From the NCBI GenBank assembly GCA_041746575.1, contig JBGTGT010000083.1, forward strand, positions 1-53,721: 53,721 bases of DNA. Reading direction: 5' to 3'. The stretch's first letter is position 1, and every line of letters starts with the position of its first letter. A program made the position numbers. Below are positions 21,001-27,000 of this stretch, in pieces. This DNA comes from Microcystaceae cyanobacterium. GTDB taxonomy: Bacteria; Cyanobacteriota; Cyanobacteriia; Cyanobacteriales; Microcystaceae.

Positions 21001-24000
21001 TTGTGTGTCATCTTGGAACGGAAAATGGCAAGGTGGTTGCTAAGGAGAAAAGCCAGTGAATCTCAGTCGGCGTGATTTAATCAGAATTGCCTCAACATCG
21101 GGTTTAGGCGTTATTGGACTAGCGGCCGCTCAAAAAAGCCTAAATTCGCTTTCGTCGTCTCCACAAACCTTAGCTATGGACGCAAACCCTGAAAAAATGC
21201 TCTATCGAACATTAGGACGTACCGGAGAACAAGTCTCGTTGATCGGTTTGGGGGGTCACCATATTGGACGAATAGCGGATGCTTCCGAAGCAATCTCACT
21301 GATGCGAAAAGCCCTTGAACACGGTATTAATTTTTGGGATAATTGTTGGGATTATCATCAAGGAGAGAGTGAAATCCGCATGGGAAAAGCACTGCAAGGG
21401 GGCTACCGAGATCGGGTTTTTTTGATGACCAAAATTGACGGTCGTACGAAAGAGGCCGCCGCTCAGCAGATTGATGAATCGCTCAAACGTTTGCAGACTG
21501 ACCGGATCGATTTACTACAACATCATGAAGTAATTCGCCTAGAAGACCCTGATCGTATCTTTGCCGAAGGGGGGTCAATGGAAGCTGTTGTAGCCGCACA
21601 AAAAGCAGGGAAAGTTCGTTACATCGGTTTTACGGGACATAAAGATCCCCTTGTTCACCTGAGAATGCTAGAAATTGCCGATCAAAATCAATTTCGCTTT
21701 GATGCTGTGCAGATGCCCTTAAATGTCATGGATGCCCATTTTCGCAGTTTTGAGCAACGAGTTCTGCCCATTTTGCTTAAAAATGAGATTGGGGTATTGG
21801 GTATGAAATCGATGGGAGACAATTATATTCTTAAAAGTAAGGTCGTTAGCCCAATTGAGTGTCTGCACTATGCGATGAATCTGCCCACCTCAACGGTGAT
21901 TACAGGCATTGAGAGTCAAGCCATTCTCGATCAAGCGATTGAAGCTGTTCGCACGTTTCAACCGATGAGCCAAGAACAAGTGGTGGCTTTACTGGCGAGA
22001 ACTCAGAAATGGGCAGTTGGAGGAGAATACGAATTATTCAAGACAACGAGTCAATTCGACGGGACGGCTAAGAATCCTGAATGGTTAGGTTGATACTCTA
22101 CTTTTTCCCCTAAAAACGGGAAATTCGGAGTTCAATAAACTTGAGTGCGATCGCCACTGGTTTGCTGAAATTAAATATTTTTTACTTCTTAAAGTTACGT
22201 GAGTTCGACGAGGGCAATTATCTTAATCCTTTTGTTCATTCTAGTTTATTGGGATTAGGAAAAGAAAAACAAATTCTTGATTGGGGGACTAGCCCCCCTA
22301 ACCCCCCAACGGGGGACGGAGTGCCTCCCCCGCACCCCCTGCACAAAAAAATTAAATAAAGAAGTCTCGTAGATTTTTTGATGGTCGAACTCACGTTAAA
22401 GTTGGAGACTGACAGAAGAGGGAGATAATCATAAAATGGGTTGGGTGCTCGCACCCCTACAGAATTATGGTCGTTTAAACAGATTTGAGATGATTCTCAT
22501 CACAGATTCCCCTCATAGGGAAATTTTGGATTTTCTACATTTATTTCCTTTTATTTCCATGTTGCCTTTGAGGATTTTCCCGATTGCGCCCCAGCCATTC
22601 CCTTTATTTTGGGACTGACATCCTATAGAAATTTACCTAAGCTTAAGTCAATTGCTGAATCATTGAAGCAAAATTTACTCTAAAAGCTGAGGAGCTTCTT
22701 AAATAATGAAAAATCTTGTTCTATCTATTTTAGGCTTAACTTTTCTGGGTGCAATGCCCCTAGTCGCCTATGCAGGGGATGAAGTCAATGTGCAAACCAG
22801 TGATGTCGTCGTCACCCAAGATGGAAATGGTAACATTGGTGCGGTTACAACTGAACAGACCATTCGTTCTACGACTCGTTCCCGTTCAAGAGAACAAATG
22901 ACTAATAGTGCTGGCAACGTTCAAGATTATCGCGTAGATGTTTATCAGCGAGGAATGGGCAACGAAACCAGAGTTCGAGGTCGTCAGTCTGTTGAACGCA
23001 ATATCAACTATCGACGGTAATTGAAAGATATTGAGAGAAGGAAGAATCAAAATAGCTATTCTTTCCTTCTTTTGTTAAAAATAGACGTCAAGAGGCTAAA
23101 TTTATGATTTCTCAGTCCTTATCAGGATGGCTCGCTATTGGACTCCTTATTTTATTTTCAGGTGTCGTTGAAGCGGGAGAAATTCAGATTAATACGGGAA
23201 GGGTGAGGGTAGAGAAAGGAACGACAGGAAACATTACGGTAGAAACGGGGGAATGGCGTCGAAGAAATGAATTGAAACGCTCATTTTATCCTCATGACTC
23301 GTTTGTGAACCCTTATTATCCCTATGATAACGTCAATCACTGTCAGATGAGATCCCATCAAGACGTTCAATCCAGCGATCGCAATGGTCGCTATCAACAT
23401 CATCATCTTAATATCAGTCAGCGATGTTCTTAAAAAAGCGTAAACAGACAATCACTCTAAGGAGGAGGTGCTAATTCATGAAACCTAGCTTATTTTTATT
23501 AAGTGTAGCTGTCATTTCAACAGGATGGGCTAATCATCCTTCCGTTAGTCAATGCGTACAGGCGGATGTCTCAGTTCAATATAGCATCCGTTCTTCAAAG
23601 CAACCGACAGAGCGAAGCAACGATGTGACGATGAAACCAGATCCTGAGTGTAGCGGTAATGCTAGTATTACAACTGGGATACAGGGATATCGAGGGGATC
23701 AAGAAAACCTACGACAACAACGACGCATTCGTCAGGTACAACAAGGGGGGCAGAGTAATAGGTCTGGGATAGAGGGCAATACTGTACAAATTCGCTCTAA
23801 TGTCCAAAAAGACTTTTATTTGCCTAGATTACCGAACAAAGTTGATTAAGGTTGACGTTAGTGAGGGATATGAGTTATGAATCGTCTTTTTATTCGTTCT
23901 TTCAGGGGTATAGGAAATCTTTTAGGGGCAATAAGTCTGCTATTTGTCTCTGGGACAATGGGAGAGGCTGTGATAGCTCAAAATTATGGGCAAAGCATTC

Positions 24001-27000
24001 ATACAGTGACTGTTTTCTCAGAAAATCTCAATCAACCTTATTGGTTAATCATCAATGCACCCCCTTCTACCCAAATTAGCGGAGAAATTCGCCTGAATGA
24101 TCGCTTGATTCAGCGACTCAATTCTCCTTCTCTTCGTCTTAATCTTATGCCCTATCTAGGTTTGGGTCGTTATCGCTTGGAAATTATCGGTCACTATACG
24201 CCATCGGATAACGGGATTGAACTGTCTTTATCGGGTGGAAATACGCAAATTAACCAGCGAACGGCGGGAAGTGGTGTAATTAATCACATTATTAATCTTG
24301 AGGTCAAATAATAAAGCATGAATCGTATTTTATTGAGTACCCTATTATTTAGCACTCTGACGTTGCCGACGTTAGCACAAAACACTGATCAAAGTGCTTC
24401 AGCAGAAGCCAATATCTTGGGTAATAACAATACCGTTAATCAGACGATTAATCAAACCATTATTTATCATCCGGGTATTGTCAATCGTCGGGAAAATAAA
24501 GAAAAAACTGAAAATCGAGGACAGTCTCGTTCAAGATTTCAGGGCGAAGAAACGACTAAAAAGAAACAAAAGCACGGCTATAACAATCTCATTTAGATTG
24601 TAAATCAAACTAAAAATAGAAAGCGGGGAACAAACAACAGGGGCGGTGTTTTCAGCTTTTTTCTTATTTAACTATAATGATCGAACTTGAGCAATAATAG
24701 CACGATGACGGGGACTAATAGGGGTAATTTGTGGGGTTTGAAAACCTGCCTCTATTAAGGCTGAAACTACATCTAAGGTGAAGTATTGATCGAGATAAGG
24801 TTCGGTACTTTTGAGCAAGGTTAAGACGTAGGGAGGCATTTTTCGATATACTTCTGAACGAGGATTCATGTCCATCATCGCAAAGTAACCCCCATTGCCT
24901 AAAACCCGTCTGGCTTCTTGAAAAATCGCTTTAGCGGCACTTTGAGGCAGTTCATGAAACACCAGAAAGGCAGAAACGAGATCAAAGCTGTTATTTGGGA
25001 ATCCTGTTGCTTCTGCGGCAGCGTGAAGCCAAGTAATGTGATGATTTTCGTAGAATTGACTCCGATATTGTGCTACAGCAAGACAATAAGCCGATAAATC
25101 CAGTCCGGTAATCTGAGATTGGGGATAAGCCTTTTGAAGGGGAAAGGTACTTAAGCCCGCACTACACCCAAGATCAAGAATATTTTGAGGGGGTTGTATT
25201 AATTGAGATTTGAGGACATGATGGTAATTTTGACGAATTTTGGCATCTCCTTCAATGCTAATGCCTTCTGTATCCTTCCAAATCGTTGAATGTACCGCTT
25301 TTGCCGCCGATTCTACTTCTAAGGCCGCTTCCCAACACAAATTCCCCTGCTCATAGGCATGGAAAGAGGCTAGATAATAATCAGGATAGCTTATTTGAGT
25401 ATTTTCTATTTTTGTATATACTTCTGTCCAATTCTGAGCTTTTTTCAAAATTTTTACATTATTTCGCCAAGGAACACCTATTTTTTCCGCACGGTTAATC
25501 ATCATCTGACGTGCTTGATATTTTGCGATGTTCCACAGGGGTTTAATAGATAAAAGTCGATTGATAAGATGGGTTGTTAAAGGGGGTTGAGGGGTGGTTT
25601 CGGTGGCATTCATATCTATTCAAAGAGAAAAAAGACTCAACCGATCATCATAAATAATTCAGATCACGGAATAGTCAAAACGGTGGCGACTGTAACGTTA
25701 CTTAACAATTTTGTTACCGAAAATGTAACTTTATCCCCTTTTTCGGGAATTGACGGCATACTAAAACAAACATCTCGTCCATGAAGGTTTATGATGTCTT
25801 TTAAAGATGCCCGTGATTATCAAATTCTTTTCTTAACGACCTTTCTTTTATTAGGAATTGTCACCAGAGACTGGACGTTAAAAATCGAATTAATTCCTAT
25901 TACGATCGCTGTTTGTTTGATCACACAATTTTTTTTATCACAGCTTAGTGATTTTGTCAAGGCTTTGTTTAATCAGCAAGGAAGCCAAAAGTACCATGCT
26001 CACTCTCGAAAATATCACTTTTTTGAGTTTCTGTCAACTTCTTCTTGGAAAAGTGCTTTAATAACGGCGTTAGGATTGTGCTTACTTTTGCGAGCGAATC
26101 ATTATCAAACGATGATTTTGGCAGGAAGTTTAGCGATTAGTAGTAAGTTCTTTTTACGATATCAAGAAAAGCATTTTTTTAATCCAGCGAATTTTGGCAT
26201 TATTGCCGCTTTATTGTTGACTCAAGATGCTTGGATTTCTCCCGGACAGTGGGGAACGGATTGGTGGTATTTATTATTATTTTTAGGACTGGGAGGCGTC
26301 GTTCTAAAACAAGTGGGACGATGGGATACTTCTGTGACTTTTTTACTTGCTTATCTAGGGTTAGAAGCCATGAGAAATTTTTGGCTAGGATGGAGTTGGG
26401 ATGTTTTGCAACATCAATTGATGAGTGGCAGTTTATTACTCTTTGCTCTTTTTATGTTGACGGATCCTCGTTCCCTTCCGAATGCAACTAAGGGACGATT
26501 AATTTGGGCAGTAAGTATTGCTATTTTAACCTTTATCTTGCAACATAGCTTTTATCTTTCGACGGCGATTTTTTGGGCATTATTTATCGTGTCACCGTTA
26601 ACCCTTATCTTAGATATTTACTGGTCATCTCCTCGCTTTACTTGGCACAAACAATTAACTGTAACCCATAATTTGTAACTTGTTTGTCGAAAAAAATGAA
26701 GAGTTTTTTGGAAAATAATTTTAATTTCTGTAATCTCTTCTTACTTTTTATTCTTCCCAATACTCTCTACTGGAAAATGATAAAACTATCTCAACTCTTT
26801 TTGACTTTTTTCCTAACCCTAATAGTGAGCTTAGGATTCCTAGAACCCGCTTGGGCTTTCTGTGGCTTTTATGTATCTAAAGCTGATAGTAACTTATATA
26901 ATCAAACCTCTCAAGTAATTATCGCTCGTGAGGGCGATCGCACCCTTTTAACGATGGCAAATGACTATCAAGGGGAAGTCAAAGATTTTGCTTTAGTTGT

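Follow-up and report, generated by a model that had tools for sequence, protein, structure and literature searches.

The question raised by this locus is whether five small genes in a row, located in a contig of a Microcystaceae cyanobacterium (GenBank assembly GCA_041746575.1, contig JBGTGT010000083.1), encode an exported fibre system, as had been proposed in the genome-wide survey's note, and how such a system would be related to curli. The window, i.e. the whole stretch of DNA that was analysed, comprises 53,721 nucleotides. As claimed in that note, the five open reading frames (g54 to g58) were found to be co-directional, on the + strand, with a purine-rich SD-like motif 5' of each of them and with intergenic gaps of 83, 44, 27 and 6 bp from g54 to g58. 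The proposed signal peptides are likewise in keeping with the data: by inspection of the sequence and of the family alignments, each N-terminus is signal-peptide-like, a hydrophobic stretch leading up to an AxA-like site, and both traits are conserved throughout the family alignments. The fraction of Q, N, S, T, G and R is 0.46-0.53 in all five proteins. The mature proteins are basic (pI 8.4-9.8), with 13-15% R and K and 10-12% D and E, and four of the five are very hydrophilic (GRAVY about -1.1 to -1.5). This strong charge and hydrophilicity is unlike CsgA. No match over cut-off was obtained for any of the five proteins in Pfam, NCBIfam or PADLOC, in agreement with the note as far as Pfam and PADLOC are concerned. 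The PEP-CTERM sorting signal is absent from the C-termini of all five. Two exosortase genes are present in the host genome, away from the module.

The five genes are one operon-like, conserved and previously unannotated module. Relatives of g57 had been reported in the note from 4 of 40 genomes, a figure that had to be revised: they are much commoner, with 57 carriers among the 301 genomes sampled from the host's order, and show strong synteny. Relatives of g56 were detected in 68 of the same genomes, and both families together in 47. In a sample of 301 genomes of the phylum, 18 matches were obtained, all within the host's order. By the titles of their records, carriers include Crocosphaera, Cyanothece, Pleurocapsa, Hyella, Halothece, Prochloron and Nostoc. 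Gene order was analyzed in 44 loci of different species anchored on g56. The core triad c1-c5-c2 (g54-, g55- and g56-type) was recovered in 44, 42 and 44 of these loci, respectively, the c5 gene lying between c1 and c2 in 42; a g57-type gene was present in 17, and a g58-type (c1-class) ORF ended the module in 16. Among 21 loci anchored on g57, c1 was found in 18, c5 in 13 and c2 in 17. In 17 of the 21 the g57 gene was located directly 3' of the g56 gene, and c1 genes formed 1-5 tandem copies in 18. The claim of a conserved module of exported proteins is supported by these counts. Since the flanks differ among loci and consist of housekeeping genes or common paralogue families, the module is regarded as self-contained.

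The first gene, g54 (22706-23020, + strand; ORF with SD-like site), encodes an exported two-repeat protein of 104 aa, family c1. Judged from its sequence, each repeat is composed of a strand, a G-x-(G/N)-N turn and a second strand, with Q ladders, and the repeats are followed by a basic Arg-rich linker and tail. The protein contains the string QDGNGNIGAVTTEQ quoted in the note. It matched the c1 HMM, which had been stripped of signal peptides and includes g54 itself, at E 1.5e-20, and the N-terminal arch of the c5 HMM with 22.2 bits. In the c1 alignment A3, G40, N43, G83 and N86 are conserved at 90% or more. The curlin-type repeat core Q-x-G-x-x-N recurs within c1 proteins, which have two repeats each: QxGxxN occurred 26 times in 15 of 42 c1 proteins compared to 4.6 +/- 2.2 times (maximum 10) in shuffles, and QxGxGN 15 times in the 42 proteins compared to 0.5, where the counts include paralogues and kin and are not independent. 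The c1 genes diverge fastest among the members of the module.

The last gene, g58 (24318-24596, + strand), encodes an exported single-repeat protein of 92 aa with a basic tail. It was assigned by its match to the c1 HMM (E 3e-13; this HMM includes g58 itself) and contains the second quoted string, GNNNTVNQTINQTI. Its motif, G-N-N-N-x-V-x-Q-T-I-N-Q-T-I, occurs four times in each of four larger module-adjacent proteins of other genomes, with a shuffle mean of at most 0.03. One of these four larger neighbours has Calx-beta and DUF4114 over cut-off, and a 368-aa neighbour with the motif (locus L034) has a PEP-CTERM-like tail under cut-off (17.7 versus 20.7 bits).

Curli of E. coli and Salmonella (csgBAC/csgDEFG, type VIII secretion) are resembled in two ways. 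Small Sec-exported subunits rich in Q, N, G, S and T have strand-turn-strand repeats with a Q-x-G-x-x-N turn, the minimal curli repeat being given as X6QXGX2NX10 in the excerpt of PMC3521004, and related subunit genes in a row are followed by a small Ig-like sandwich gene, comparable to the order csgB-csgA-csgC in E. coli. The module differs from curli in having two repeats instead of five and in its Cys-stapled minor components. Furthermore, CsgA is acidic whereas the module proteins are basic. Membership in the curlin family (CsgA/CsgB) was not supported. The sole Pfam match, Curlin_rpt (PF07012) on g54 (E 0.0068), reached 16.8 bits versus a cut-off of 20.7, the other four proteins were without match, and among 42 c1-family proteins a Curlin_rpt row at E of 0.05 or less was obtained for g54 only. 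Alignment of A3 to CsgA with hhalign resulted in a probability of 0.5%, with 7 columns (the QxGxGN turn) aligned, and alignment to CsgB in 1.6%; no curlin chain was found at E of 10 or less with the A3 profile among PDB sequences, and NCBIfam CsgA scored 13 bits versus a cut-off of 160. With respect to the curlin-like strings of the note, the QxGxxN turn was retained as a motif enriched in c1, and a profile relation to CsgA, CsgB or CsgC was not found. The proposed independence of CsgG was supported: this outer-membrane channel (PF03783) had no match in the host genome, which is 99.78% complete, nor in four of five other near-complete carriers, and the match in the fifth is located about 3.6 Mb from the module.

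The genes between the two repeat proteins encode the minor components and the sandwich. The exported protein g55 (23104-23433, + strand, 109 aa) was assigned to family c5 by a full-length match, both Cys included, to a c5 HMM built without g55 (46.5 bits, E 1.1e-15, 5 targets). From its sequence, a beta-arch unit resembling the one in g54 is predicted at the N-terminus, then a basic middle part and, at the C-terminus, a loop that two Cys close. A conserved Cys pair is present in g55 and likewise in g56. The latter (23478-23849, + strand, 123 aa; exported, family c2) is the best-conserved member, with 43% mean column identity in alignment A2, two invariant Cys (26, 58) and 68 relatives, none of them named. 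Its model (pLDDT 76.4) has five long amphipathic strands (27-38, 45-53, 62-72, 79-87 and 103-114), and the description of four of the five proteins as low-complexity falls short for g56. The monomer was modelled as an open, non-globular sheet, and none of 48,161 chains matched it structurally at Z of 2 or more, which suggests that g56 needs partners. The top Foldseek rows of g56, all non-significant, were FapC fibrils (E 0.87 and 1.5, TM 0.15-0.17) and a CsgA fibril (E 1.8); all 28 rows subjected to VIA-align had Z < 2.

The fourth gene, g57 (23877-24311, + strand, 144 aa), encodes an exported protein of family c0, with 217 representative relatives. An improved model from a 56-sequence alignment (pLDDT 85.6; residues 41-144 at least 93 per block) has nine strands and is in accordance with the Ig-like beta-sandwich announced in the note. 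Structural matches were generic Ig/FN3/CBM sandwiches with Z 5.2-5.9 (best Z 5.9); none reached Z 8, and all Foldseek rows had E above 0.001. With CsgC/CsgH, Ig-like proteins that inhibit the polymerisation of curlin in the periplasm, g57 shares the trait of a small exported Ig-like beta-sandwich, the position of its gene after the subunit genes, and presence in part of the systems (17 of the 44 g56-anchored loci; 105 CsgC versus 172 CsgF table entries in the excerpt of PMC3521004). E. coli CsgC is annotated as 'curlin chaperone'. It was not among the best 50 structural matches listed for g57, and hhalign of the g57 alignment A1 to CsgC resulted in a probability of 0.1%. Differences to CsgC are the nine strands and the modelled binding to g56, not to the repeat subunit. 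In 3 of 94 N-terminally extended g57 relatives, the sandwich domain is preceded by a fused c5-type arch (E 1.2e-9 to 1.1e-4), an arrangement that points to an integral component, not to a free chaperone.

The g56-g57 complex was modelled with an ipSAE of 0.61 versus 0.05 for the best of 3 controls, and with partner pLDDT of at least 83. The ipSAE mark is reached by 116 of 157 solved complexes and by 2 of 215 mismatched pairs, counts that apply only roughly here because custom alignments were used for the complex model. The predicted interface comprises residues 63-75 and 77-87 of g56 and residues 36-45, 111 and 122-132 of g57, with invariant or near-invariant columns T66, G67, Q69, Q80 and R82 in g56 and Q127 and G131 in g57. 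The three runs had as little as 1% of contacts in common, so that the interface is not fixed. The modelling supports a putative binding of g57 to the conserved central hairpin (62-87) of g56. The role as nucleator or chaperone assigned to the sandwich in the note is in part compatible with the modelled binding to g56; an essential nucleator is excluded by the occurrence of g57 in only 17 of the 44 g56-anchored loci, which makes it accessory.

It is quite possible, and is proposed here tentatively, that the module forms a beta-rich structural assembly beyond the cytoplasmic membrane, be it a polymer, a surface coat or part of the matrix. On whether the products co-assemble, where they end up and what each one does, we infer that the five Sec-exported, basic, hydrophilic and beta-strand-rich proteins act together outside this membrane. 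The g54-type proteins, which are present in 1-5 tandem copies and show the fastest divergence, would be the bulk subunit, and the single-copy g55- and g56-type proteins would be minor components by which the assembly is begun, anchored or terminated. By edge-strand pairing, g57 may dock on the most conserved g56 hairpin as a cap, chaperone or adaptor. The one-repeat relative of g54, g58, would be replaced in some genomes by the larger surface-type proteins with four motifs. No outer-membrane exporter is encoded in or adjoining the module, and the products may therefore stay in the periplasm. High charge and hydrophilicity and the number of two repeats per g54-type protein count against an assembly, and no characterised fibre or matrix protein proved homologous in Pfam, NCBIfam, hhalign to CsgA, CsgB and CsgC, or PDB profiles. 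Formation of amyloid or fibres is a possibility raised by composition and motif. From the original reading as an exported fibre system, the conserved exported module, the turn motif, the independence of CsgG and a modelled partner were kept; curlin homology was not supported, and an essential sandwich nucleator was given up.

A CsgG-independent functional-amyloid system peculiar to one cyanobacterial order is considered unlikely. In such a system, the g54-type proteins would stack into a cross-beta or beta-solenoid fibre, nucleated or anchored by Cys-stapled g55 and g56; g57 would cap the g56 hairpin and restrain polymerisation, as CsgC does in curli, and g58-type repeats would link the fibre to larger surface proteins. 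The system would be without sequence kinship to curli, Fap, TasA and EbfG, and its curlin-like repeat would have arisen by convergence. The Fap system of Pseudomonas (fapABCDEF) is similar in that a number of small secreted repeat proteins, both major and minor, are encoded in one operon. When the PDB sequence set was searched with profiles, no relative of the module proteins emerged, FapC included, and the module contains no gene for a FapF-like barrel or a FapD-like peptidase. EbfG proteins have a double-glycine leader and a dedicated exporter. According to the excerpt of PMC9981879, EbfG1-4 of Synechococcus elongatus PCC 7942 are small secreted biofilm proteins from one operon, a trait shared with the module, and EbfG1-3 form amyloid in the C-DAG assay. 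The EbfG hotspot motif given there (A-Phi-N-I-Pi) differs from that of the module, the systems being compared by description. The EbfG proteins of this one Synechococcus strain were the only published cyanobacterial functional amyloids found in the literature searched.

Alternatively, the products could be non-polymerising periplasmic envelope proteins, for example small folded or disordered factors binding peptidoglycan or the outer membrane from within, or a stress/holdase set, with g57 and g56 as a stable heterodimer. This is improbable, and the 1-5-copy expansion and fast divergence of c1 are met with more often in subunits that are structural or exposed at the surface. The explanation agrees with the exclusively Sec-type signals and the lack of an exporter in the module, with Cys pairs suited to an oxidising periplasm, with the high charge and hydrophilicity, and with the discrete heterodimer predicted by the complex model; it is at variance with the recurrence of the g58 motif in proteins with DUF4114, Calx-beta or a PEP-CTERM-like tail, and with the open sheet modelled for g56, which has no structural match and suggests a need for partners.

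Secreted basic proteins that cross-link anionic matrix polymers (acidic exopolysaccharide, LPS or extracellular DNA) without fibres of their own would leave the strand-turn-strand repeats, the Cys-stapled g55 and g56 and the sandwich partner unexplained, and in the flanks examined polysaccharide genes are not linked to the module. This explanation is regarded as quite improbable, despite the pI of 8.4-9.8 in all five proteins, the Arg-rich linkers and tails, the patchy presence (68 of 301 genomes) expected of an accessory lifestyle trait, and the many carriers whose records are titled Pleurocapsa, Hyella, Xenococcaceae, Hydrococcus, Waterburya and Nostoc. It is very improbable that the products are secreted peptides for competition or signalling (bacteriocin-like or morphogen-like), the tandem paralogues of which diversify under conflict: small size, tandem multiplication, rapid c1 divergence and a weak NCBIfam PatX row on g58 (E 0.07) would fit, but the PatX score is far below cut-off (13.9 versus 30 bits), the leaders are Sec-type and not double-glycine, genes for immunity, processing or a transporter are not conserved alongside, and such peptides do not usually show the kind of conservation seen in the single-copy g55, g56 and g57.

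Little is known of the proteins in the sheaths, mats and biofilm matrices of cyanobacteria. The structural assembly tentatively proposed here makes the module a concrete candidate for a system that forms fibres, a coat or a matrix. Its 3-5 exported proteins, without named relative, make up a compact and self-contained set carried by about one fifth of the genomes sampled from a large order, with a predicted protein pair, g56-g57, for which contact residues can be named. If fibres are indeed formed, a curlin-like repeat could be assembled without the CsgG machinery.

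Five co-directional open reading frames with signal-peptide-like starts were present at 22706-24596 (+ strand), as the genome-wide survey's note had observed, and the sequence strings cited there were found in the proteins. They comprise g54 (22706-23020), g55 (23104-23433), g56 (23478-23849), g57 (23877-24311) and g58 (24318-24596), all on the + strand and separated, in this order, by 83, 44, 27 and 6 bp, and an SD-like purine-rich motif lies 7-14 nt 5' of the ATG in every one. Every N-terminus has a hydrophobic run with an AxA-like site, conserved in the family alignments; signal peptides were judged from the sequences and these alignments. 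All five mature proteins are basic, with pI 8.4-9.8; g54, g55, g56 and g58, but not g57, are in addition very hydrophilic, Q+N making up 16-26% and R+K 13-15% of their residues. Searches of the five against Pfam, NCBIfam and PADLOC gave no match over a curated cut-off. Rows below it were Curlin_rpt of Pfam on g54 (E 0.0068, 16.8 bits; cut-off 20.7), NCBIfam CsgA on g54 (13 bits; cut-off 160) and NCBIfam PatX on g58 (13.9 bits; cut-off 30).

Base composition was unremarkable, an Rfam search of 21500-25500 yielded no match, and the promoter and terminator scan returned 5 and 2 sites, which is chance level (6.1 and 2.4 expected). Of the sequencing runs listed as containing the stretch, four were DNA runs from a single study and none was an RNA run. 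A MITE-like repeat of ~200 bp, its ends inverted and its core rich in G/C, is located at 22185-22410, 300-520 bp upstream of g54; blastn recovered 71 matching pieces across the contigs of the genome, many of them at contig ends. The + strand downstream of the module encodes, at 25791-28156, an RnfD/NqrB-like membrane protein (295 aa, PF03116) and, after a gap of 5 bp, a DUF2330 protein (490 aa); the two genes look like a tight pair.

Relatives of g57 were detected by a six-frame search in 57 of 301 genomes of the order, the window's genome counted in, and in 28 of 120 genera. The relatives reported by the survey's note were thus borne out, at a conservation far above the figure given there. 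A word-index search with g57 recovered g57 alone; the relatives came from an exhaustive profile search, which yielded 217 representative proteins at E <= 0.001. The g56 family was found by profile search in 68/301 genomes and 29/120 genera of the order; both families occurred together in 47 genomes, g57 alone in 10 and g56 alone in 21. In a phylum sample of 301 genomes all 18 hits fell within the same single order. By record label, carriers include Crocosphaera, Cyanothece, Hydrococcus, Pleurocapsa, Hyella, Xenococcaceae, Waterburya, Halothece, Aphanothece, Prochloron, Cyanosarcina, Nostoc, Fortiea and Altericista, with further contigs labelled Leptolyngbyaceae and Pseudanabaena. The source names of the relatives were 'hypothetical protein' throughout, and the window's genome holds one copy of the module. 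Typical modules of the g54, g55 and g56 types were also located on contigs from assemblies titled Candidatus Gracilibacteria and Rhizobium sp. (loci L053 and L092), which are probably mis-binned cyanobacterial DNA.

Gene order was compared by clustering the ORFs of the window and of 20 stretches, each of ~20 kb, that surround g57 relatives (21 g57-anchored loci in all), and by running HMMs over 44 g56-anchored loci from 44 species. The order did not vary: the module opens with the g54 type (family c1) in one to five tandem copies and continues with single genes of the g55 (c5) and g56 (c2) types, then often with g57 (c0), and a variable gene comes last. The g54 type was present in 44/44 g56-anchored and 18/21 g57-anchored loci, the g55 type in 42/44 and 13/21, the g56 type in 44/44 and 17/21, and g57 in 17/44 and 21/21. 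From these counts, the core appears to be the triad g54-g55-g56, with g57 as a frequent accessory. The g58 position, a g54-class ORF after the g56 type or g57, was occupied in 16 of the 44 g56-anchored loci, and the next gene in loci without g57 was unrelated housekeeping. The window's g55 matched an HMM of its family built without it over the full length, including both Cys (46.5 bits). Outer flanks varied by locus and contained common families, among them Ser/Thr and histidine kinases and WD40-STAND proteins. Genes for an exporter, a peptidase or a glycosyltransferase did not accompany the module in the compared loci.

A secreted coiled-coil protein of ~190 aa (family c7) was present in 4/44 g56-anchored and 5/21 g57-anchored loci. 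Its members (L035:10337-10921, L036:9125-9655, L038:10282-10827, L039:9048-9644 and L041:10272-10874) lie after g57; they begin with a Q/N-rich part, continue with a conserved beta segment (...PVNTENDFGLNLS...) and end in a coiled coil. The family corresponded to no Pfam family and has no relative in the window's genome. In three loci from family f17 (L042:8229-9578, L045:8315-9697 and L046:10382-11761), the gene directly downstream of g57 encodes a Ser/Thr kinase whose C-terminal domain is conserved. Two loci from the window's family have comparable kinases at a distance of 3-6 kb from the module.

Proteins of the g54 type contain two units, each composed of a strand, a G-x-(G/N)-N turn and a second strand with Q at fixed spacing; an Arg-rich linker lies between the units and a basic tail follows. 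G40, N43, G83 and N86 were kept at >= 90% in the alignment. The minimal curli repeat is given in PMC3521004 as X6QXGX2NX10, with the core Q-x-G-x-x-N. This core occurred 26 times, in 15 of 42 g54-type proteins, versus 4.6 +/- 2.2 (maximum 10) in shuffled sequences, and QxGxGN occurred 15 times in the 42 versus 0.5, both counts being inflated by paralogues and kin. Elsewhere the core was rare (5 occurrences in 90,854 residues of 373 other ORFs from the same loci). The g54 protein aligned to the N-terminal arch of the g55-type HMM with 22.2 bits, so that the two families appear to have an arch unit in common, and g58 carries a single unit of the g54-like kind. Between the g54 and g56 families, hhalign aligned the signal peptides only.

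Four larger module neighbours in other genomes (L034:10210-11316, L079:2705-3811, a 457-aa ORF in L006, and L049:10406-13195) each contain exactly four copies, similarly placed, of the g58 motif N-x-[VILT]-x-Q-x-[ILVM]-x-Q; the shuffle mean was <= 0.03. The 929-aa neighbour matched Calx-beta and DUF4114 over cut-off; the two of 368 aa have a PEP-CTERM-like tail, and the one scanned remained below the Pfam cut-off.

The g57 model, built on a 56-sequence alignment, is a nine-strand sandwich (pLDDT 85.6) preceded by ~35 residues of signal peptide and linker. Structural searches with it returned only generic sandwich domains of the Ig, FN3 and CBM kinds, at a best Z of 5.9, with no match at Z >= 8 and no Foldseek row at E <= 0.001. 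The g56 model (40 sequences) consists of five long amphipathic strands (pLDDT ~80-90), and Cys26 and Cys58 are invariant in the family. No chain among 48,161 matched it at Z >= 2. Its 28 Foldseek rows (E 0.87-10) were headed by FapC and CsgA fibrils and included beta-helices, and all had Z < 2 by VIA-align; the FapC and CsgA rows, at E 0.87-1.8, were not counted as evidence. In the ESM Atlas, g56 retrieved only unnamed cyanobacterial 'secreted protein' clusters, and g54 nothing >= 0.8 among named clusters. The lack of structural matches for the g56 model was taken only as a sign of an open, non-globular sheet, probably in need of partners. Judging from the C-terminus, which is variable in the family and ends in ...PNKVD with no terminal aromatic in the window's copy, an outer-membrane barrel would not apply.

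Three modelling runs of g56 with g57 gave ipSAE values of 0.56, 0.61 and 0.68 (median 0.61; best control 0.05), with partner pLDDT >= 83. In the calibration, 116 of 157 solved complexes and 2 of 215 mismatched pairs reached the ipSAE mark; for the custom alignments used here it applies only approximately. The best of the runs has strand 62-72 of g56 in antiparallel pairing with strand 123-129 of g57 (70-126, 68-128, 66-130), and the interface includes the most conserved columns (T66, G67, Q69, Q80 and R82 of g56; Q127 and G131 of g57). The model supports binding of g57 to g56; since agreement between the runs was low (at least 1% of contacts), the exact interface is only tentative. An N-terminal extension was present in 94 of 149 g57 relatives, and in 3 of the 94 a g55-type arch precedes the sandwich (E 1.2e-9 to 1.1e-4), fusions that would give the partnership of g57 modest independent backing. 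Extensions resembling g56 and g54 spotted by eye in the relatives P0073 and P0106 did not reach E 0.01 with HMMs stripped of the signal peptide. The relative P0049 (1008 aa) contains six tandem repeats of ~95 aa with a weak g57-domain match in six stretches (E 8.8e-13 overall); they look like putative pre-peptidase C-terminal-type sandwich domains.

Comparison with E. coli curli proteins by hhalign gave probabilities of 0.5% for the g54-type alignment against CsgA (seven aligned columns, the turn), 1.6% for the same alignment against CsgB and 0.1% for the g57 alignment against CsgC. Among the 42 g54-type proteins, g54 alone had a Curlin_rpt row, and profiles of the g54, g56 and g57 families retrieved nothing related from PDB chain sequences. 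CsgG (PF03783) was not found in the window's genome (99.78% complete). Of 5 other near-complete carriers, 4 likewise gave no match, and in the fifth the single hit lies far from the module. On these sequence comparisons, the module is not curli by descent. The literature found on cyanobacterial amyloid or curli-like systems does not describe it, the sole cyanobacterial functional amyloid found there being EbfG (PMC9981879), for which the C-DAG export system was used. In Crocosphaera subtropica ATCC 51142, a culturable carrier, the module lies at the cce_1574 locus. The locus tags cce_1573, cce_1574, cce_1575 and PCC7418_0812 were not mentioned in the literature searched, outside which lies the proteome supplement of PMC11312527.

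The most economical account, held at just short of an even chance, is a self-contained exported set whose members build a beta-rich structure together, either within the envelope or extracellularly. The survey's note had gone further, proposing an amyloid or sheath fibre with g57 as nucleator or chaperone. A CsgG-independent curli analogue of amyloid nature, in which g57 would act as CsgC does, is unlikely; its support consists of the motif and the gene order. The lack of an exporter in the module, the high charge and hydrophilicity, and the presence of two repeats only were counted against the assembly and its amyloid version alike. Periplasmic proteins that do not polymerise are an equally improbable explanation, matrix proteins binding polyanions are slightly less probable again, and competition or signalling peptides are very improbable. 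If the exported set does assemble, the g54 type, multiplied and quick to diverge, would supply the bulk of the subunits, with g55 and g56, both single-copy and Cys-stapled, as minor components. The g57 protein would be an accessory to g56, serving as its cap, chaperone or adaptor, and repeats of the g58 type would provide a link to larger surface proteins.
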